This document shows positions 8,701 through 32,864 of a DNA stretch of 64,000 nucleotides, piece by piece (position 1 is the stretch's first letter; every line of letters begins with the position of its first letter). Origin of the DNA: Eledone cirrhosa (Eukaryota); the NCBI GenBank assembly GCA_964016885.1, contig OZ024746.1, positions 101,866,001-101,930,000 on the forward strand, written 5' to 3'. Under the pieces are notes generated by a model that saw only the letters and a list, made by a program, of their open reading frames with translations, made no database searches and had not been told where the DNA came from. Position numbers and translations under genes: made by a program.

Positions 8701-9000
8701 GGACATCATCAGGACAGTGCCTTCCCTGCTCTCTGCTGGAATTTGAAACAGGCAAAAATATAGTTTTTTCACCTATGTAGATGGGCTGATTAACCTCATT
8801 AGCATATGGAGCTGTATAAGCTGGCTCAGATTAAAAGTAGAATTAAAAGTTTAGCTCTGACATAGCTGTATACATATAAGTATGTGAATTTCGTATATCT
8901 AATGATATATGGTATGTTTAATAAATAAACATTTGGAAAGTCTTCCAGCTATAAATATTGAAAGACTGATGTCTAGCGCCATCTAGTGGGTTCCAGCATA
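8700..9000 (-). mobile_element. Dispersed copy of the ~334-bp HHR repeat family
   Basis: The reverse complement aligns by eye with 32150-32445. The HHR is deleted after CTGATGA. Confidence 0.7.
8974..8989 (-). promoter_or_regulatory. CTCF-like motif
   Basis: CCACTAGATGGCGCTA matches the bilaterian CTCF core consensus. Binding is not shown. Confidence 0.5.
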
Positions 9001-10745: not shown

Positions 10746-11560
10746 ATAATTCACATTTTGTGTTCAACCTTTGAGCTGCAGCTAAAGTCACACATCCTAA
10801 TTATTACCTATGTCTTATGTTGACAGAAATTGTAATGTATTGTTAGAGTTATTGGCTAGAATAGATCAGTACTTTTAAATTGTTGGTTCACTGATGATAT
10901 TTCATATTTTATGTCCAGTTTCCTAATTTGCAACATCTAATCAGCATTGGGATTACAACCAGATATCATCGTTGTTTGATGTCTATTTTCCATGGCTTAG
11001 ACAAGTTGTTATCAGACCACATCAGGTGATCATGTCTTACTTATATGAGACTGGTTTCAAGAGCTGGGTGCCCATCATAATGCCAGCTATGTGGAGGACA
11101 TCATTTAACGTCTATGTTTCCATGCTTGTTTGGAGTTTGGGTTTGGAGACCATGTCTTACTCATACAGGTCTGTATTTTGGGTTGGTTTCTAGAGCTGGA
11201 TACGCTTCCTAAGGCCAATCATGTTACATGTATATATAAATTCATGAGACTGTGTATAATCGCTGGCATGTATATTTAGTAGCATAATCAAATTTTACTA
11301 AAGAATTTGTTTTTGTTTTCATGACAGCATCAACACTGACATTCTTATAGACTGGGTAATGACAACCAAACTAGCCACATAATCATGTGAGGGGAATGTA
11401 GCATGCAGGAGAGATGGTCGCACTGGGATAGATATACAATGAATATAGAAGAAATGCCAGGAGTTGCAAGTGGAAGGAAGCTGTGAAAGAAGACCAAAAA
11501 ATGAGCTGAAGTGGTGAAAGATAATCAGATGACAAAGAAAAGAGACGGTGGGGTGATGTT

Positions 11561-14500
11561 GTACTGGAGAGGACTGGTCTAACCGCTGATGTACTGGGGA
11601 GGACTGGTCTAACCCCTGCTGTACTGGAGAGGACTGGTCTAACCCATGCTGTACTAGAGAGGACTGGTCTAACCCCTGATGTACTAGAGAGGACTGGGCT
11701 AACCCCTGATGTACTGGGGAGGACTGGTCTAACCGCTGATGTACTGGAGAGGACTGGTCTAACCCCTGATGTACTGGGGAGGACTGGTCTAACTCCTGAT
11801 GTACTGGGAAGGACTGGTCTAACCCCTGATGTACTGGGGAAGACTGGTCTAACCCCTGATGTACTGGGGAGGACTGGTCTAACCCCTGATGTACTGGGGA
11901 AGACTGGTCTAACCCATGCTGTACTGGGGAGGACTGGTCTAAACCCTGATGTACTGGTCTAACCCCTTATGTACTGGAGAGGACTGGTCTAACCCATGCT
12001 GTACTGGGGAGGACTGGTCTAAACCCTGATGTACTGGTCTAACCCCTTATGTACTGGAGAGGACTGGTCTAACCCCTGATGTACTGGGGAGGACTGGTCT
12101 AACCCCTTATGTACTGGAGAGGACTGGTCTAACCCCTTATGTACTGGAGAGGACTGGTCTAACCCATGCTGTACTGGGGAGGACTGGTCTAATCCCTGAT
12201 GTACTGGGGAGGACTGGTCTAACCCCTTATGTACTGGAGAGGACTGGTCTAACCCCTTATGTACTGGAGAGGACTGGTCTAACCCATGCTGTACTGGGGA
12301 GGACTGGTCTAACCCCTGATGTACTGGTCTAACCCCTTATGTACTGGAGAGGATTGGTCTAACCCATGCTGTACTAGAGAGGACTGGTCTAACCCCTGAT
12401 GTACTGGGGAAGACTGGTCTAACCCCTGTTGTACTGGGGAAGACTGGTCTAACCCCCGATGTACTGGGGAGGACTGGTCTAACCCCTGCTGTACTGGAGA
12501 GGACTGGTCTAACCCATGCTGTACTGGGGAGGACTGGTCTAAACCCTGATGTACTGGTCTAACCCCTTATGTACTGGAGAGGACTGGTCTAACCCCTGAT
12601 GTACTGGGGAGGACTGGTCTAACCCCTGATGTACTGGGGAGGACTGGTCTAACCCCTGATGTACTGGGGAAGACTGGTCTAACCCCTGATGTACTGGGGA
12701 GGACTGGTCTAACCCCTGCTGTACTGGAGAGGACTGGTCTAACCCCTGATGTACTGGGGAGGACTGGTCTAACCCCTGATGTACTGGGGAAGACTGGTCT
12801 AACCCCTGATGTACTGGGGAGGACTGGTCTAACCCCTGCTGTACTGGAGAGGACTGGTCTAACCCCTGATGTACTGGGGGGACTGGTCTAACCCCTGATG
12901 TACTGGGGAAGACTGGTCTAACCCCTGATGTACTGGGGAGGACTGGTCTAACCCATGCTGTACTAGAGAGGACTGGTCTAACCCCTGATGTACTGGGGAG
13001 GACTGGTCTAACCCCTGATGTACTGGGGAGGACTGGTCTAACCCATGCTGTACTGGGGAGGACTGTTCTAACCCCTGCTGTACTGGAGAGGACTGGTCTA
13101 ACCCCTGATGTACTGGGGAGGACTGGTCTAACCCCTGATGTACTGGGGAAGACTGGTCTAACCCCTGATGTACTGGGGAGGACTGGTCTAACCCATGCTG
13201 TACTGAGGAGGACTGGTCTAACCCCTTATGTACTGGAGAGGACTGGTCTAACCCCTGCTGTACTGAGGAGGACTGGTCTAACCCCTTATGTACTGGAGAG
13301 GACTGGTCTAACCCCTGCTGTACTGGAGAGGACTGGTCTAACCCCTGATGTACTGGGGAAGACTGGTCTAACCCCTGATGTACTGGGGAGGACTGGTCTA
13401 ACCCATGCTGTACTAGAGAGGACTGGTCTAACCCCTGATGTACTGGAGAGGACTGTTCTAACCCCTGCTGTACTGGAGAGGACTGGTCTAACCCATGCTG
13501 TATTAGAGAGGACTGGTCTAACCCCTGATGTACTGGGGAGGACTGGTCTAACCCCTGATGTACTGGGGAAGACTGGTCTAACCCCTGATGTACTGGAGAG
13601 GACTGGTCTAACCCCTGATGTACTGGGGAGGACTGGTCTAACCCCTGATGTACTGGGGAAGACTGGTCTAACCCCTGATGTACTGGGGAGGACTGGTCTA
13701 ACCCATGCTGTACTAGAGAGGACTGGTCTAACCCCTGATGTACTGGGGAGGACTGGTCTAACCTCTGATGTACTGGGGAGGACTGTTCTAACCCCTGATG
13801 TACTGGAGAGGACTGGTCTAACCCCTGATGTACTGGGGAGGACTGGTCTAACCCATGCTGTACTGGGGAGGACTGGTCTAAACCCTGATGTACTGGTCTA
13901 ACCCCTTATGTACTGGAGAGGACTGGTCTAACCCCTGATGTACTGGGGAGGACTGGTCTAACCCCTTATGTACTGGAGAGGACTGGTCTAACCCATGCTG
14001 TACTGGGGAGGACTGGTCTAACCCCTGATGTACTGGTCTAACCCCTTATGTACTGGAGAGGACTGGTCTAACCCATGCTGTACTAGGGAGGACTGGTCTA
14101 ACCCCTGATGTACTGGGGAGGACTGGTCTAACCCCTGATGTACTGGGGAGGACTGGTCTAACTTCTGATGTACTGGGGAGGACTGTTCTAACCCCTGCTG
14201 TACTGGAGAGGACTGGTCTAACCCCTGATGTACTGGGGAGGACTGGTCTAACTTCTGATGTACTGGGGAGGACTGGTCTAACCCCTGCTGTACTGGAGAG
14301 GACTGGTCTAACCCATGCTGTACTAGAGAGGACTGGTCTAACCCCTGATGTACTGGGGAGGACTGGTCTAACCGCTGATGTACTGGAGAGGACTGGTCTA
14401 ACCCCTGATGTACTAGAGAGGACTGGTCTAACCCCTGATGTACTGGGGAGGACTGGTCTAACCCCTGATGTACTAGAGAGGACTGGTCTAACCCCTGATG

Positions 14501-17500
14501 TACTGGAGAGGACTGGTCTAACCCCTGATGTACTGGGGAGGACTGGTCTAACTCCTGATGTACTGGGAAGGACTGGTCTAACCCCTGATGTACTGGGGAA
14601 GACTGGTCTAACCCCTGATGTACTGGGGAGGACTGGTCTAACCCCTGCTGTACTGGGGAGGACTGGTCTAAACCCTGATGTACTGGTCTAACCCCTTATG
14701 TACTGGAGAGGACTGGTCTAACCCATGCTGTACTGGGGAGGACTGGTCTAAACCCTGATGTACTGGTCTAACCCCTTATGTACTGGAGAGGACTGGTCTA
14801 ACCCCTGATGTACTGGGGAGGACTGGTCTAACCCATGCTGTACTGGGGAGGACTGGTCTAAACCCTGATGTACTGGTCTAACCCCTTATGTACTGGAGAG
14901 GACTGGTCTAACCCCTGATGTACTGGGGAGGACTGGTCTAACCCCTTATGTACTGGAGAGGACTGGTCTAAGCCCTTATGTACTGGAGAGGACTGGTCTA
15001 ACCCATGCTGTACTGGGGAGGACTGGTCTAACCCCTGATGTACTGGTCTAACCCCTTATGTACTGGTGAGGATTGGTCTAACCCATGCTGTACTAGAGAG
15101 GACTGGTCTAACCCCTGATGTACTGGGGAAGACTGGTCTAACCCCTGATGTACTGGGGAGGACTGGTCTAACCCCTGTTGTACTGGGGAAGACTGGTCTA
15201 ACCCCTGATGTACTGGGGAGGACTGGTCTAATCCCTGATGTACTGGGGAGGACTGGTCTAACCCCTGATGTACTGGGGAGGACTGTTCTAACCCCTGCTG
15301 TACTGGAGAGGACTGGTCTAACCCCTGATGTACTGGGGAGGACTGGTCTAACCCCTGATGTACTGGGGAAGACTGGTCTAACCCCTGATGTACTGGGGAG
15401 GACTGGTCTAACCCATGCTGTACTAGAGAGGACTGGTCTAACCCCTGATGTACTGGGGAAGACTGGTCTAACCCCTGATGTACTGGGGAGGACTGGTCTA
15501 ACCCATGCTGTACTAGAGAGGACTGGTCTAACCCCTGATGTACTGGGGAAGACTGGTCTAACCCCTGATGTACTGGGGAGGACTGGTCTAACCCATGCTG
15601 TACTGGGGAGGACTGGTCTAACCCCTGATGTACTGGAGAGGACTGGTCTAACCCATGCTGTACTAGAGAGGACTGGTCTAACCCCTGATGTACTGGGGAA
15701 GACTGGTCTAACCCCTGATGTACTGGGGAGGACTGGTCTAACCCCTGTTGTACTGGGGAGGACTGGTCTAACCCCTGATGTACTAGGGAGGACTGTTCTA
15801 ACCACTGCTGTACTGGAGAGGACTGGTCTAACCCCTGATGTACTGGGGAGGACTGGTCTAACTCCTGATGTACTGGGGAGGACTGGTCTAACCCATGCTG
15901 TACTGGGGAGGACTGGTCTAAACCCTGATGTCCTGGTCTAACCCCTTATGTACTGGAGAGGACTGGTCTAACCCCTGATGTACTGGGGAGGACTGGTCTA
16001 ACCCCTGATGTACTGGAGAGGACTGGTCTAACCCCTGATGTACTGGGGAGGACTGGTCTAACCCCTGATGTAATGAGGAGGACTGGTCTAATCCCTGATG
16101 TACTGGGGAGGACTGGTCTAACCCCTGATGTACTGGGGAGGACTGGTCTAACCCCTGATGTACTGGGGAAGACTGGTCTAACCCCTGATGTACTGGGGAG
16201 GACTTGTCTAACCCATGCTGTACTAGAGAGGACTGGTCTAACCCCTGATGTACTGGGGAAGACTGGTCTAACCCCTGATGTACTGGGGAGGACTGGTCTA
16301 ACCCATGCTGTACTAGAGAGGACTGGTCTAACCCCTGATGTACTGGAGAGGACTGGTCTAACCCCTGATGTACTGGGGAGGACTGGTCTAAACCCTGATG
16401 TACTGGTCTAACCCCTGATGTACTGGGGAGGACTGGTCTAACCCCTTATGTACTGGAGAGGACTGGTCTAACCCCTTATGTACTGGAGAGGACTGGTCTA
16501 ACCCATGCTGTACTGAGGAGGACTGGTCTAACCCCTTATGTACTGGAGAGGACTGGTCTAACCCATGCTGTACTAGAGAGGAATGGTCTAACCCCTGATG
16601 TACTGGGGAAGACTGGTCTAACCCCTGTTGTACTGGGGAGGTCTGGTCTAACCCCTGATGTACTGGGGAAGACTGGTCTAACTCCTGATGTACTGGGGTG
16701 GACTGGTCTAACCCCTGATGTACTGGGGAAGACTGGTCTAACCCATGCTGTACTAGATAGGACTGGTCTAACCCCTGATGTACTAGAGAGGACTGGTCTA
16801 ACCCCTTATGTACTGGAGAGGACTGGTCTAACCCCTGATGTACTAGAGAGGACTGGTCTAACCCCTGATGTACAGGGGAGGACTGGTCTAACCCCTGATG
16901 TACTGGGGGGGACTGGTCTAACCCCTTATGTACTGGACAGAACTGGTCTAACCCCTTATGTACTGGGGAGGACTGGTCTAACCGCTTATGTACTGGGGAG
17001 GACTGGTCTAACCCCTGATGTACTGGGGAAGACTGGTCTAACCCCTGATGTACTGGGGGGGACTGGTCTAACCCCTTATGTACTGGACAGAACTGGTCTA
17101 ACCCCTTATGTACTGGGGAGGACTGGTCTAACCCCTGATGTACTGGGGGGGACTGGTCTAACCCCTTATGTACTGGACAGAACTGGTCTAACCCCTTATG
17201 TACTGGGGAGGACTGGTCTAACCCCTGATGTACTGGGGGGGACTGGTCTAACCCCTTATGTACTGGACAGAACTGGTCTAACCCCTTATGTACTGGGGAG
17301 GACTGGTCTAACCGCTTATGTACTGGGGAGGACTGGTCTAACCCCTGATGTACTGGGGAAGACTGGTCTAACCCCTGATGTACTGGGGGGGACTGGTCTA
17401 ACCCCTTATGTACTGGACAGAACTGGTCTAACCCCTTATGTACTGGGGAGGACTGGTCTAACCCCTGATGTACTGGAGAGGACTGGTCTAACCCCTGATG

Positions 17501-19350
17501 TACTAGAGATGACTGGTCTAACCCCTGATGTACTAGAGAGGACTGCTCTAACCCCTTATGTACTAGAGAGGACTGGTCTAACCCATGCTGTACTAGAGAG
17601 GACTGGTCTACACCTGATGTACTGGAGAGGACTGGTCTAACCCCTGATGTATGGGGAGGACTGGTCTAACCCCTTATGTACTGGAGAGGACTGGTCTAAC
17701 CCCTTATATACTGGAGAGGACTGGTCTAACCCATGCTGTACTGGGGAGGACTGGTCTAACCCCTTATGTACTGGAGAGGACTGGTCTAACCCATGCTGTA
17801 CTAGAGAGGACCGGTCTAACCCTAGATGTACTGGGGAGGACTGGTCTAACCCCTGTTGTAGTGGGGAGGACTGGTCTAACCCCTTATGTACTGGAGAGGA
17901 CTGGTCTAACCCATGCTGTACTGGGGAGGACTGGTCTAACACCTGATGTACTGGGGAAGATTGGTCTAACCCCTGATGTACTGGGGAGGACTGGTCTAAC
18001 CCCTGTTGTACTGGGGAGGACTGGTCTAACCCCTGATGTACTGGGGAGGACTGATCTAACCCCTGCTGTACTGGAGAGGACTGGTCTAACCCCTGATGTA
18101 CTGGGGAAGACTGGTCTAACCCCTGATGTACTGGGGAGGACTGGTCTAACCCATGCTGTACTAGAGAGGACTGGTCTAACTCCTGATGTACTGGGGAGGA
18201 CTGGTCTAACCCCTGATGTACTGGGGAAGACTGGTCTAACCCCTGCTGTACTGGAGAGGGCTGGTCTAACCCATGCTGTACTAGAGAGAACTGGTCTAAC
18301 CCCTGATGTACTAGAGAGGACTGGTCTAACCCCTTATGTACTGGAGAGGACTGGTCTAACCCCTGATGTACTAGAGAGGACTGGTCTAACCCCTGATGTA
18401 CTAGAGAGGACTGGTCTAACCCCTGATGTACTGGGGAGGACTGGTCTAACCCCTTATGTACTGGAGAGGACTGGTCTAACCCCTTATGTACTGGGGAGGA
18501 CTGGTCTAACCCCTTATGTACTGGGGAGGACTGGTCTAACCGCTTATGTACTGGGGAGGACTGGTCTAACCCCTTATGTACTAGAGAGGACTGGTCTAAC
18601 CCATGCTGTACTAGAGAGGACTGGTCTAACACCTGATGTACTGGAGAGGACTGGTCTAACCCCTGATGTACTGGAGAGGACTGGTCTAACCCATGCTGTA
18701 CTAGAGAGGACTGGTCTAACCCATGCTGTACTAGAGAGGACTGGTCTAACCCATGCTGTACTAGAGAGGACTGGTCTAACCCCTGATGTACTAGTGAGGA
18801 CTGGTCTAACCCCTGATGTACTGGTCTAACCCCTGATGTACTGGTCTAACCCCTGATGTACTGGGGAGGACTGGTCTAACCCCTGCTGTACTGGAGAGGA
18901 CTGGTCTAACCCATGCTGTACTAGAGAGGACTGGTCTAACCCCTGATGTACTGGGGAGGACTGGTCTAACCTCTCCTGTACTGGAGAGGACTGGTCTAAC
19001 CCATGCTGTACTAGAGAGGACTGGTCTAACCCCTGATGTACTGGGGAGGACTGGTCTAACCCCTGATGTACTGGGGTGGACTGGTCTAACCCCTGCTGTA
19101 CTGGAGAGGACTGGTCTAACCCATGCTGTACTAGAGAGGACTGGTCTAACCCCTGATGTACTGTGGAAGACTGGTCTAACCCCTGATGTACTGGGGAGGA
19201 CTGGTCTAACCCCTGCTGTACTGGAGAGGACTGGTCTAACCCATGCTGTACTAGAGAGGACTGGTCTAACCCCTGATGTACTGGGGAGGACTGGTCTAAC
19301 CCCTGATGTACTGGGGAGGACTGGTCTAACCCCTGCTGTACTGGAGAGGA
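11561..19350. repeat. 30-bp minisatellite, ~260 copies (TSN intron 3)
   Basis: Unit GTACTGGGGAGGACTGGTCTAACCCCTGAT, with recurring 20-bp deletion variants. Confidence 0.98.
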
Positions 19351-22606: not shown

Positions 22607-25600
22607 TTAATATGGAGGTATATATATTGGATGACTTAATATGGAGGTATATATATTGGATGACTTAATATGGAGGTATATATATTGGATGACTTAATAT
22701 GGAGGTATATATATTGGATGACTTAATATGGTTGTATATATATTGGATGACTTAATATGGTTGTATATATATTGGATGACTTAATATGGTTGTATATATA
22801 TTGGATGACTTAATATGGTTGTATATATATTGGATGACTTAATATGGAGGTATATATATTGGATGACTTAATATGGAGGTATATATATTGGATGACTTAA
22901 TATGGAGGTATATATATTGGATGACTTAATATGGTTGTATATATATTGGATGACTTAATATGGTTGTATATATATTGGATGACTTAATATGGTGGTATAT
23001 ATATTGGATGACTTAATATGGTTGTATATATATTGGATGACTTAATATGGAGGTATATATATTGGATGACTTAATATGGAGGTATATATATTGGATGACT
23101 TAATATGGAGGTATATATATTGGATGACTTAATATGGAGGTATATATATTGGATGACTTAATATGGAGGTATATATATTGGATGACTTAATATGGTTGTA
23201 TATATATTGGATGACTTAATATGGTTGTATATATATTGGATGACTTAATATGGTGGTATATATATTGGATGACTTAATATGGAGGTATATATATTGGATG
23301 ACTTAATATGGAGGTATATATATTGGATGACTTAATATGGTGGTATATATATTGGATGACTTAATATGGTTGTATATATATTGGATGACTTAATATGGAG
23401 GTATATATATTGGATGACTTAATATGGAGGTATATATATTGGATGACTTAATATGGTGGTATATATATTGGATGACTTAATATGGTGGTATATATATTGG
23501 ATGACTTAATATGGTTGTATATATATTGGATGACTTAATATGGTTGTATATATATTAGATGACTTAATATGGAGGTATAATATTGGATGACTTAATATGG
23601 TGGTATATATATTGGATGACTTAATATGGTTGTATATATATTGGATGACTTAATATGGTTGTATATATATTGGATGACTTAATATGGAGGTATATATATT
23701 GGATGACTTAATATGGTGGTATATATATTGGATGACTTAATATGGAGGTATATATATTGGATGACTTAATATGGAGGTATATATATTGGATGACTTAATA
23801 TGGAGGTATATATATTGGATGACTTAATATGGTTGTATATATATTGGATGACTTAATATGGAGGTATATATATTGGATGACTTAATATGGTGGTATATAT
23901 ATTGGATGACTTAATATGGAGGTATATATATTGGATGACTTAATATGGAGGTATATATATTGGATGACTTAATATGGAGGTATATATATTGGATGACTTA
24001 ATATGGTTGTATATATATTGGATGACTTAATATGGAGGTATATATATTGGATGACTTAATATGGTGGTATATATATTGGATGACTTAATATGGTGGTATA
24101 TATATTGGATGACTTAATATGGAAGTATATATATTGGATGACTGTTAATGTGGTTGTATATATATATTGGATGACTTAATATGGAGGTATATATATTGGA
24201 TGACTTAATATGGAGGTATATATATTGGATGACTTAATATGGAAGTATATATATTGGATGACTGTTAATGTGGTTGTATATATATATTGGATGACTTAAT
24301 ATGGAGGTATATATATTGGATGACTTAATATGGAGGTATATATATTGGATGACTTAATATGGAGGTATATATATTGGATGACTTAATATGGTGGTATATA
24401 TATTGGATGACTTAATATGGTTGTATATATATTGGATGACTTAATATGGAGGTATATATATTGGATGATTTAATATGGAGGTATATATATTGGATGACTG
24501 TTAATGTGGTTGTATATATATATTGGATGACTTAATATGGAGGTATATATATTGGATGACTTAATATGGAGGTATATATATTGGATGACTTAATATGGAG
24601 GTATATACTGGTGTTAGGAAGGGCATCAAACCAGTGTATCAATGCCAAAACGCTTATCAGCACAGCAACAAATAGGAACAAATATATTGGATGACTTAAT
24701 ATGGTTGTATATATATTGGATGACTTAATATGGAGGTATATATATTGGATGACTTAATATGGAGGTATATATATATTGGATGACTTAATATGGAGGTATA
24801 TATATTGGATGACTTAATATGGAGGTATATATATTGGATGACTTAATATGGAGGTATATATATTGGATGACTTAATATGGTTGTATATATATTGGATGAC
24901 TTAATATGGTTGTATATATATTGGATGACTTAATATGGTGGTATATATATTGGATGACTTAATATGGAGGTATATATATTGGATGACTTAATATGGAGGT
25001 ATATATATTGGATGACTTAATATGGTGGTATATATATTGGATGACTTAATATGGTTGTATATATATTGGATGACTTAATATGGAGGTATATATATTGGAT
25101 GACTTAATATGGAGGTATATATATTGGATGACTTAATATGGTGGTATATATATTGGATGACTTAATATGGTGGTATATATATTGGATGACTTAATATGGT
25201 TGTATATATATTGGATGACTTAATATGGTTGTATATATATTAGATGACTTAATATGGAGGTATAATATTGGATGACTTAATATGGTGGTATATATATTGG
25301 ATGACTTAATATGGTTGTATATATATTGGATGACTTAATATGGTTGTATATATATTGGATGACTTAATATGGGGGTATATATATTGGATGACTTAATATG
25401 GTGGTATATATATTGGATGACTTAATATGGAGGTATATATATTGGATGACTTAATATGGAGGTATATATATTGGATGACTTAATATGGAGGTATATATAT
25501 TGGATGACTTAATATGGTTGTATATATATTGGATGACTTAATATGGAGGTATATATATTGGATGACTTAATATGGTGGTATATATATTGGATGACTTAAT

Positions 25601-28392
25601 ATGGAGGTATATATATTGGATGACTTAATATGGAGGTATATATATTGGATGACTTAATATGGAGGTATATATATTGGATGACTTAATATGGTTGTATATA
25701 TATTGGATGACTTAATATGGAGGTATATATATTGGATGACTTAATATGGTGGTATATATATTGGATGACTTAATATGGTGGTATATATATTGGATGACTT
25801 AATATGGAAGTATATATATTGGATGACTGTTAATGTGGTTGTATATATATATTGGATGACTTAATATGGAGGTATATATATTGGATGACTTAATATGGAG
25901 GTATATATATTGGATGACTTAATATGGAAGTATATATATTGGATGACTGTTAATGTGGTTGTATATATATATTGGATGACTTAATATGGAGGTATATATA
26001 TTGGATGACTTAATATGGAGGTATATATATTGGATGACTTAATATGGAGGTATATATATTGGATGACTTAATATGGTGGTATATATATTGGATGACTTAA
26101 TATGGTTGTATATATATTGGATGACTTAATATGGAGGTATATATATTGGATGATTTAATATGGAGGTATATATATTGGATGACTGTTAATGTGGTTGTAT
26201 ATATATATTGGATGACTTAATATGGAGGTATATATATTGGATGACTTAATATGGAGGTATATATATTGGATGACTTAATATGGAGGTATATACTGGTGTT
26301 AGGAAGGGCATCAAACCAGTGTATCAATGCCAAAACGCTTATCAGCACAGCAACAAATAGGAACAAATATATTGGATGACTTAATATGGTGGTATATATA
26401 TTGGATGACTTAATATGGTGGTATATATATTGGATGACTTAATATGGTGGTATATATATTGGATGACTTAATATGGAGGTATATATATTGGATGACTTAA
26501 TATGGTGGTATATATATTGGATGACTTAATATGGAGGTATATATATTGGATGACTTAATATGGAGGTATATATATTGGATGACTTAATATGGTTGTATAT
26601 ATATTGGATGACTTAATATGGAGGTATATATATTGGATGACTGTTAATGTGGTTGTATATATATTGGATGACTTAATATGGTGGTATATATATTGGATGA
26701 CTTAATATGGTTGTATATATATTGGATGACTTAATATGGAGGTATATATATTGGATGACTTAATATGGTGGTATATATATTGGATGACTTAATATGGAGG
26801 TATATATATTGGATGACTTAATATGGAGGTATATATATTGGATGACTTAATATGGAGGTATATATATTGGATGACTTAATATGGTTGTATATATATTGGA
26901 TGACTTAATATGGAGGTATATATATTGGATGACTTAATATGGTGGTATATATATTGGATGACTTAATATGGAGGTATATATATTGGATGACTTAATATGG
27001 AGGTATATATATTGGATGACTTAATATGGAGGTATATATATTGGATGACTTAATATGGTTGTATATATATTGGATGACTTAATATGGAGGTATATATATT
27101 GGATGACTTAATATGGTGGTATATATATTGGATGACTTAATATGGTGGTATATATATTGGATGACTTAATATGGAAGTATATATATTGGATGACTGTTAA
27201 TGTGGTTGTATATATATATTGGATGACTTAATATGGAGGTATATATATTGGATGACTTAATATGGAGGTATATATATTGGATGACTTAATATGGAAGTAT
27301 ATATATTGGATGACTGTTAATGTGGTTGTATATATATATTGGATGACTTAATATGGAGGTATATATATTGGATGACTTAATATGGAGGTATATATATTGG
27401 ATGACTTAATATGGAGGTATATATATTGGATGACTTAATATGGTGGTATATATATTGGATGACTTAATATGGTTGTATATATATTGGATGACTTAATATG
27501 GAGGTATATATATTGGATGATTTAATATGGAGGTATATATATTGGATGACTGTTAATGTGGTTGTATATATATATTGGATGACTTAATATGGAGGTATAT
27601 ATATTGGATGACTTAATATGGAGGTATATATATTGGATGACTTAATATGGAGGTATATACTGGTGTTAGGAAGGGCATCAAACCAGTGTATCAATGCCAA
27701 AACGCTTATCAGCACAGCAACAAATAGGAACAACAAATATATTGGATGACTTAATATGGTGGTATATATATTGGATGACTTAATATGGTGGTATATATAT
27801 TGGATGACTTAATATGGTGGTATATATATTGGATGACTTAATATGGTGGTATATATATTGGATGACTTAATATGGAGGTATATATATTGGATGACTTAAT
27901 ATGGTGGTATATATATTGGATGACTTAATATGGAGGTATATATATTGGATGACTTAATATGGAGGTATATATATTGGATGACTTAATATGGTTGTATATA
28001 TATTGGATGACTTAATATGGAGGTATATATATTGGATGACTGTTAATGTGGTTGTATATATATTGGATGACTTAATATGGAAGTATATATATTGGATGAC
28101 TGTTAATGTGGTTGTATATATATTGGATGACTTAATATGGAGGTATATATATTGGATGACTTAATATGGAGGTATATATATTGGATGACTTAATATGGAG
28201 GTATATATATTGGATGACTTAATATGGAGGTATATATATTGGATGACTTAATATGGTGGTATATATATTGGATGACTTAATATGGTGGTATATATATTGG
28301 ATGACTTAATATGGTGGTATATATATTGGATGACTTAATATGGTGGTATATATATTGGATGACTTAATATGGAGGTATATATATTGGATGAC
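22607..28392. repeat. 29-bp minisatellite, ~190 copies, with higher-order structure
   Basis: Unit TAATATGGAGGTATATATATTGGATGACT. A ~74-bp insert occurs at 24608, 26293 and 27660. Confidence 0.98.
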
Positions 28393-31835: not shown

Positions 31836-31882
31836 GTCACTGAGGAAGTCACAGAATGTGTGTGTGACGAAAGAGCTTTGAC
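31836..31882 (+). ncRNA. Minimal type I hammerhead ribozyme (antisense to TSN)
   Basis: GUCA-CUGAGGA-A-GUCACA..UGUGAC-GAA AGAGCU U-UGAC. Stems I and II pair perfectly. Confidence 0.7.
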
Positions 31883-32069: not shown

Positions 32070-32630
32070 AAGTCCAGCAGTCGCAAGTGTGGGAGGGATC
32101 ATCCTGATGAAGCCAAGTTAAGTTCGAAATGCATCGACGTCCCCCTTGCTTCTGCTGGACACCACCAGAGTGTGTTAGCCCCGGTGATTTGCATAGCTGT
32201 GGCTTTCTAAATGTTTACCTGTAAACATACCGTGTTTCTTTAGAAATACGAAATTTCTATATATAACTGTATACAACTATGCCTGAAGCTAAATCCTAAT
32301 TCTATTCTATTATAGTTGAGCCAACTTAAGCAGCTTCATATGCAAATGAGATTAATCACCTCATTTATACAGATGAGAAAATTATATATTCTCGCCTGTT
32401 TTCAAGTCCTGCAGTTGTAAGAGTGGGAGGGCTCATCCTGATGAGACCAGTTAAGTTCGAAATGCATTGACAATTGTCCCCCTTGCTTCTGTTGTACACC
32501 ACCAGAGGGCGTTAGCCCCGGCTTTCTAAATGTTTATCTGTAAACATACAGTATTTCTTTAGAAATACAAAATTCTAATACATATCTGTATACAGCTATA
32601 CATGAAGCTAAATCCTAATTCGATCTATAT
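32070..32630 (+). mobile_element. Tandem ~334-bp HHR-containing repeat (1.7 copies), retrozyme-like or Penelope pLTR-like
   Basis: CTGATGA...TTCGAAATGCAT at 32104 and 32438. In copy 1 the motif is enclosed by GTCCAGCAG/CTGCTGGAC and GCAAG/CTTGC stems. Confidence 0.75.
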
Positions 32631-32709
32631 ATATTACCTTCAATATCTAAAAGCATTTTTTCCAATTCCACCCCGCCAGTCCCCTCTATCTATCTTATTT
32701 CTCATTCTT

Positions 32710-32745
32710 TCTTCTGATGAAGGACTAGCGTCCGAAACGTTAAGA
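32710..32745 (+). ncRNA. Minimal type I hammerhead ribozyme (antisense to TSN)
   Basis: UCUU-CUGAUGA-A-GGAC UAGC GUCC-GAA ACGU U-AAGA. Stems I and II are perfect and stem III is the palindrome ACGU. Confidence 0.8.
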
Positions 32746-32826
32746 CCCTCTTCGTGCTATATCAAGCGTTAACCTAATATATCCCTTCCATATACTGTAT
32801 CGATTGTGTTATTTCTGTTTACCTTT

Positions 32827-32864
<38 letters not shown>

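Follow-up and report, generated by a model that had tools for sequence, protein, structure and literature searches.

The window analysed here is a stretch of 64,000 nucleotides from contig OZ024746.1 of Eledone cirrhosa, and it contains, at 32070-32633, a tandem of two hammerhead-like cores accompanied by an octamer and a CTCF-like motif, raising the question of what kind of element this locus represents, how it would be transcribed and how it would be copied. The original prediction was a non-coding ribozyme retroelement with its own promoter, mobilised by Penelope-like elements. We consider it probable that the locus is a decayed 1.7-unit copy of a protein-free 339-nt hammerhead retrozyme, with a U6/U6atac-like box and a TATA element as its likely promoter, which was likely copied by Penelope-like machinery into TA-rich microsatellites from an RNA that was likely circular or an uncut multimer.

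The motifs of the original prediction lie where it had placed them, with CTGATGA at 32104 and 32438, ATTTGCAT at 32187, ATGCAAAT at 32340, CCACCAGAGGGCGTTA at 32499 and the palindromic ATGCAT after each GAAA (Table 1). The two cores are 334 nt apart and in head-to-tail orientation, as proposed, with the correction that the insertion spans 1.7 units rather than two. The first core does sit on a long hairpin (z = -4.15, with 0 of 200 shuffles as good), and the second does not (z = -1.30). In the predicted fold, stems I and II are mispaired in both copies, which agrees with the suspicion that these copies are inactive, and both hammerheads are likely inactive as modelled. A search with the Rfam hammerhead models, suggested as a check, gave no match for the window copies, and a scan of the whole window returned microsatellite noise alone among the matches listed. 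Further hammerhead-like cores, belonging to other repeats, occur in the window at 31840 (plus strand) and 8111 (minus strand), and long satellites occupy 11560-19350 (30-nt period), 22607-28392 (29-nt period) and 42904-54551 (2-nt period).

Table 1. Coordinates, within the window, of the insertion, its parts and related repeats.
Feature	Position	Strand	Description
Family A retrozyme insertion	32070..32633	+	1.74 units, head to tail; 3' end runs into short (TA)n
Unit 1, 334 nt	32070..32403	+	90.9% identity to family A majority sequence
Partial unit 2	32404..32633	+	family positions 1-249; 85.6% identity to family A majority sequence
Long rod (extended stem I) bearing hammerhead 1	32072..32161	+	outer helices intact; 4-nt deletion damages inner stem I
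Hammerhead 1 core	32104..32135	+	CUGAUGA 32104-10; stem II mispaired; GAAA 32126-29; palindromic AUGCAU 32129-34; cut predicted after 32135
Hammerhead 2 core	32438..32468	+	stem II minus one base; C17 to U; stem I mispaired; cut predicted after 32468
Octamer box TATGCAAATGAG	32339..32350	+	motif shared with host U6/U6atac genes, there at -76 to -78
TATA-like element	32383..32390	+	43 nt from octamer start; in loop of small hairpin
CTCF-like motif	32499..32511	+	motif match; overlaps small hairpin
ATTTGCAT	32187..32194	+	private mutation of window copy; in 1/97 copies
Subfamily B copy	8706..8998	-	0.87 unit; 92.6% identity to B majority; hammerhead lost after CUGAUGA
Box of subfamily B copy	8795..8806		pattern match
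CTCF-like motif of subfamily B copy	8977..8989		pattern match
Separate, younger Penelope-like repeat, 3' end	32644..32830	+	minimal hammerhead at 32714; adjoins retrozyme TA tail; not in unit

Searching the 3.0-Gb genome with unit 1 yielded 3,847 first-look candidates for a repeat family, termed here family A, 40 of which were scored, and a strict 25-base pattern of the family core matched 185 times against 0 for its control. Very roughly, and assuming about 90% identity per base, some 2,600 family A copies would span the core. The majority sequence, derived from 61 fragments with a mean identity of 90%, is 339 nt long, and the unit period of 339-340 nt and GC content of 0.40-0.41 lie within the bounds of retrozymes (about 170-400 nt, GC below 50%). 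Family A is dispersed, in loci that are mostly 0.6-1.7 units long, and old, as its copies have about 90% identity to the majority sequence; the 32070-32633 locus is likely a dead member of it. The third, diverged copy that had been noticed on the minus strand is present at 8706-8998 and does retain ATGCTAAT and the CTCF-like motif, yet it has lost its hammerhead and belongs to a sister subfamily, B (2,456 genome candidates, 340-nt period, 76% identity to A).

To establish whether the decayed stems of the window copies are restored at the family level, as the original prediction had proposed to check, we aligned 53 of 63 rod-length copies, the other 10 being excluded because they nearly duplicated a sister copy or contained indels. 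The alignment supports a type I hammerhead with an extended stem I, in which 91.9% of cells pair, compared to 34.7-46.3% with slid partners, about half of the 53 rows having been selected by a pattern that fixes the hammerhead core. Stem II covaries, with all four of its pairs changing on both sides and a covariation score reached by 0 of 500 shuffles, a score that counts sequences rather than events and is underlain by approximately four independent compensatory changes. These comprise the stem II variants GAAC/GUUC, GGAC/GUCC, AGAC/GUCU and AGGC/GCCU, together with one stem I pair. The pairable stems were thus recovered in the family, stem II by covariation, even though the particular stem II that had been predicted, GACC/GGTC, gave way to GAAC/GUUC with the other three pairs as variants.

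A type I core with pairable stems I to III is therefore found in the family and in neither window copy, and two intact family A copies fold with z values of -5.9 and -4.6. Since the AUGCAU palindrome is unable to close a 2-nt loop, stem III would pair between two motifs, an arrangement reported for axolotl hammerhead repeats (PMC7229834). Against the Rfam hammerhead models, an intact family A copy scored only 13.7 bits and none of seven loci reached gathering score, whereas the core of a sister family matched HH9 at E 1.4e-8, its 37.8 bits falling short of the gathering score (52). That family A carries a hammerhead is nonetheless close to certain. With the fold restored and no ORF attached, the prediction of a non-coding, retrozyme-like hammerhead element is supported, and the 32070-32633 locus is a decayed member of a non-LTR retrozyme superfamily.

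The ends of family A insertions carry information on how they were made. Among 88 loci picked by pattern, the 3' end runs into a microsatellite in 62 and an inverted piece stands at the 5' side in 44, hallmarks of the Penelope-type mobilisation that had been proposed; a second, BLAST-mapped set of 56 loci gave 41 and 26, respectively, with a microsatellite background of 17.9% in the flanks. Partial tandems, inverted 5' copies and microsatellite targets are hence all present, and mobilisation by Penelope-like elements appears quite probable. The 3' ends fall in two AU-rich patches of the unit, at positions 189-216 and 226-256, in 81/88 pattern-picked loci, and the 5' ends are scattered: the insertion starts upstream of the rod in 73/88, reaches at least one unit in 37/88 and at least 1.5 units in 4/88. 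Several internal 3' ends combined with an intact cut site would imply a template without a fixed end, that is, a circle or an uncut multimer. No A-to-G strand bias, as scars of RNA editing would give, was detected in family A (99 vs 100) or in family B (99 vs 82, p 0.5). One of 29 family A insertions picked by similarity (L014) starts exactly at the first base past the predicted cut.

Arrays of related families provide a second view of the template. A pattern requiring the octamer, a gap of 76-96 nt and the hammerhead core matched the genome 22,275 times against 3 for its control, and the first 100 of these matches, inspected by eye, comprised 57 members of a family E, 31 of D, 5 of F, 4 of A, 1 of G and 2 without family assignment. 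Families D and E consist of ORF-free units of 456-502 nt in arrays of up to 30 units that end in (TA)n. Several arrays are young (30 units at 99.3%, 14 at 99.2%, 4 at 100%, 3 at 98.8% and 6 at 95.4% identity), and D and E are likely the active families. A family E unit was present in the sequencing runs of four organisms, and none of the runs listed for it was of RNA, which bears on expression neither way. The contigs of four runs gave 3,903, 9, 0 and 1 matching records, figures to be read as presence only. Two long family E arrays are mosaic, with 14/20 and 7/12 variable columns shared among units. An origin of the long arrays from a single circle was considered and rejected, as such mosaic variants do not fit one pass round one circle.

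We lean moderately towards a circular template. An alternative, which we regard as rather unlikely, is that tandem source arrays give linear multimeric transcripts that stay uncut and serve as the template, long arrays then growing by unequal crossing-over. It is favoured by the scarcity of insertions reaching 1.5 units, by the repeated sub-patterns of the mosaic arrays and by the 2-nt-loop stem III, which suggests slow single-motif cutting as in the axolotl repeats (PMC7229834), but it does not lead one to expect 5' ends without a pile at the transcription start or the want of a single 3' end. Furthermore, where two copies share a locus they are closer to each other than the between-locus mean in 15/15 cases, although closer than every other copy in only 1/15. 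The current data do not separate circular from linear templates well.

How such units would be transcribed is suggested by the octamer. The sequence ATGCAAAT is found in 43/54 family A copies covering the position, and the arrangement of octamer followed by hammerhead spans at least six families. The extended box TATGC(A/T)AATNAG and a TATA element are kept in six families that barely align elsewhere, in short patches only; because families D to G were found with a pattern requiring the octamer, the octamer itself is there by construction, whereas its flanking bases and the TATA were free to vary. Families A, B, D, E, F and G space the box and TATA by an offset of 40-43. Within the window, the box alone has two matches, a number reached by 10/100 shuffles and hence non-significant, so that its significance derives from the genome-wide and U6 comparisons and not from the window count. 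The inverted octamer ATTTGCAT, which had been put forward alongside it, is not a family feature, occurring in 1/97 copies covering the position.

The same box lies upstream of the host's own small nuclear RNA genes. It is positioned at -76 to -78 in 4/7 U6 loci (three distinct promoters), the remaining three having the box displaced by an array insertion, an octamer at -275 and no box. The best of six U6atac loci has a one-base variant of the box at -77, and the remaining five, which resemble retrocopies, are without it. Upstream of U1 and U2 the box is absent (0/10 and 0/5 loci), so that it is common to U6/U6atac and missing at U1/U2, as a U6-type promoter would have it. The match with the genome's own U6/U6atac box makes the predicted internal promoter of snRNA-gene type likely, and the box at 32339-32350 is a likely candidate promoter element for the unit that follows it; judged from sequence, we think it reasonably probable that the box functions as a promoter. 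The promoter of newt satellite 2 is reported to include an octamer as well.

The correspondence is incomplete. The TATA offset is 46-48 in host U6/U6atac, placing the retrozyme TATA 3-8 nt closer to the box than U6 spacing would have it, and every unit examined contains runs of four to nine T, at which RNA polymerase III would be expected to stop. A YCAS motif 16 nt after the octamer start, noticed post hoc, resembles the TCAGT box of U1/U2. Insertion 5' ends show no excess at the predicted transcription start (11/88). The idea that they mark the start had come from loci picked by similarity, which seemed to begin at the rod start; only these 11 of the pattern-picked loci do so, no denser than upstream, and the apparent clustering is a selection bias.

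These discrepancies lend some weight to a different reading, in which octamer and TATA are kept for RNA hairpins or as an enhancer site for POU factors, and promoters nearby transcribe the units by read-through. Both motifs do lie in or beside predicted hairpins, and the unlike spacing, the T-runs and the unpiled 5' ends would fit. Against it, the box is constant across families whose hairpin sequences vary, and it has the bases of the host U6/U6atac element (in the best U6atac locus, as a one-base variant) at a like distance from TATA. We therefore consider this reading improbable, and retain the putative snRNA-type promoter. Several further observations concern the host genes and family F. 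A distal element whose core reads CTCCCTT or TTCCCTT is common to the host snRNA genes, some 250-280 nt upstream (L171, L172, L186-L210, L246); closer in, TCAGT stands near -57 and a TATA-like run near -30 in U1/U2, and the octamer box near -77 in U6/U6atac, elements that would be useful for U6-driven expression tools in Eledone cirrhosa. In family F, the segment bearing the octamer is repeated in tandem about three times before the TATA (L153, L230, L231, L233), and a U6atac retrocopy adjoins an inverted family F piece (L250:1500).

The original prediction also counted a CTCF-like site among the parts of the system. Scored against the CTCF consensus, the motif is exact in 31/93 family A copies, the variants AG, GT and AT at its variable positions all stay within the motif, and the window has 2 matches to the pattern vs 0.04 expected. 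These figures would also suit a role of family A in spreading CTCF-binding sites genome-wide, its copies acting as insulators. The motif, however, is missing from one representative each of families C, D, E, F and G, the subfamily B majority has up to 2 mismatches and a disfavoured base, and the motif overlaps a hairpin, so that such a role, as read from the motif, seems quite improbable. Being confined to A and B, the motif is in sequence terms a subfamily feature, and its place in the wider system is not upheld.

The genome is rich in GIY-YIG elements (10,596 candidates), and we compared the unit with them. Using eight Penelope-like protein pieces from the same genome, protein matches were obtained at 1/90 A/B loci and 1/88 pattern-picked A loci (28 loci being shared), both downstream of the unit, which speaks against an ordinary pLTR. 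What precedes the hammerhead in 30 loci picked by pattern is no ORF but the tail of the unit itself or a truncation; no flanking LTR structure was seen at the family A loci inspected, and Pfam searches of two flank ORFs returned nothing useful. The unit accordingly has neither coding capacity nor an attached reverse transcriptase ORF, and no repeat pair flanking an RT and GIY-YIG ORF was found at these loci. In the first of the two ORF-linked cases (L252:2521-6370), a family A copy with a 5' inversion adjoins, in the same orientation, a near full-length Penelope-like ORF whose 5' truncation falls at the junction; 0/24 other copies of that Penelope element carry the unit upstream, and a template switch explains this one junction no better than insertion of the Penelope element into the TA tail does.

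Among 50 GIY-YIG loci, none proved to be an autonomous partner with sequence in common with the unit, and the 3' regions of 48 GIY-YIG loci contain other sequences. Profile matches in about 5/50 of these loci were set aside, those inspected (L092, L096, L132) being nested insertions past the Penelope element's own end. Several Penelope-like families at L121-L140 have 3' regions of 0.7-1.5 kb with a hammerhead core departing from CUGANGA and a palindromic stem III, ACCGGT. The repeat at 32644-32830 has 2,296 genome candidates that are about 95% identical, with a Penelope ORF upstream in 1/11 other copies. The family A element is very probably non-autonomous. That the unit is instead the ordinary pLTR of an unsampled, ORF-bearing Penelope family, its short copies being 5'-truncated 3' ends, is very unlikely, and largely refuted for the present copies. 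In its favour, Penelope elements characteristically show partial tandems, 5' inversions and (TA)n targets, one copy adjoins a same-strand Penelope ORF and retrozyme-pLTR homology is described in frogs (bioRxiv 10.64898/2026.07.22.740005). Against it, the unit's own tail or a truncation precedes the hammerhead, the sole abutting ORF is 5'-truncated there with 24 other copies lacking the unit, sampled Penelope 3' regions are unrelated and sister families form ORF-free arrays of up to 30 units; an origin from an extinct pLTR is possible.

Returning to the retrozyme reading, its life cycle can be outlined from the arrangement of the parts. The tail of a unit contains the box and TATA, 60-90 nt before the hammerhead rod of its successor. 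Transcription would start from this tail and traverse the next unit, and two hammerheads, probably paired through an AUGCAU stem III, would cut out a monomer that a host ligase may close. As the 3' and 5' ends of insertions suggest, a Penelope reverse transcriptase-endonuclease would then copy it by target-primed reverse transcription with internal priming, and copying past the cut site into the unit tail would restore box and TATA upstream of the hammerhead. Because they would be regained in each insertion, an external promoter could survive the RNA stage. A broader proposal, which we put forward tentatively and at somewhat less than even odds, is that of a retrozyme superfamily of more than 20,000 units that captured the host U6/U6atac box and keeps it through the RNA stage inside a circle, the shifted TATA and a U1/U2-like YCAG perhaps recruiting a polymerase that reads through T-runs; this would constitute a SINE-like, self-transcribing class with an external snRNA-gene promoter and Penelope-type mobilisation.

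Metazoan non-LTR retrozymes are established, including those of mussels with units of 350-390 bp (Cervera and de la Pena 2020, PMC7229834), and Penelope-like elements have been proposed as their helpers (PMC7229834; bioRxiv 10.64898/2026.07.22.740005). The invertebrates of the preprint by Li, Clavereau and Pollet are three insects and one coral (bioRxiv 10.64898/2026.07.22.740005), and the available portions of these two sources neither name octopus or other cephalopods nor describe a promoter of retrozymes. Searches of published papers brought up neither retrozymes of cephalopods nor a retrozyme with a box of U6 type. An octopus repeat annotation from 2026, in whose main text the word "ribozyme" is absent, lists 893 unclassified recently active SINE families (PMC13282606), which may include such retrozyme units. 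Family A resembles the metazoan retrozymes in its type I hammerhead and its short, low-GC (40%), ORF-free head-to-tail unit; unlike those published, it shows a box common to host U6/U6atac together with Penelope-type junctions, both known here from sequence.

Newt satellite 2 (Coats et al. 1994) has a tandem hammerhead unit of about 330 bp with a short palindromic stem III and an internal snRNA-type promoter, reported as polymerase II (PMC2220036, PMC6765202). The present unit, likened to it by description rather than by sequence, shares the tandem hammerhead, the palindromic stem III and, as a candidate, the unit-internal snRNA-type promoter, but its box is that of U6/U6atac and not of U1/U2. 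The snRNA genes read by polymerase III in insects are marked by a proximal element together with a TATA, and small sequence differences set the polymerase (PMC1761439). The SM-alpha repeats of Schistosoma (Ferbeyre et al. 1998) are described as SINE-like and carry their polymerase III promoter 3'-terminally in the cut unit (PMC6765202); the candidate promoter here likewise lies at the unit 3' end, so that one unit would drive the next, and differs in consisting of an upstream U6-like box and TATA. Penelope-like EN+ clades exhibit partial tandems, an inverted 5'-truncated copy, a (TA)n bias and a hammerhead in their terminal repeats (Craig et al. 2021, PMC8557442). Partial tandems, inverted 5'-truncated copies, microsatellite targets and a hammerhead recur here, in contrast with the absence of a linked ORF and with the different sequence and hammerhead variant of the sampled Penelope 3' ends.

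Taken together, the window copies, as likely dead members of an old subfamily, matter only as a pointer. The promoter and the copying enzyme of animal retrozymes are open questions in published work, and the Eledone cirrhosa genome offers a promoter candidate that can be matched to host U6 genes, Penelope-type junctions and young, near-identical families. If the box works, it would show how a circular or tandem template lets an element keep the upstream promoter that retrocopying normally loses.
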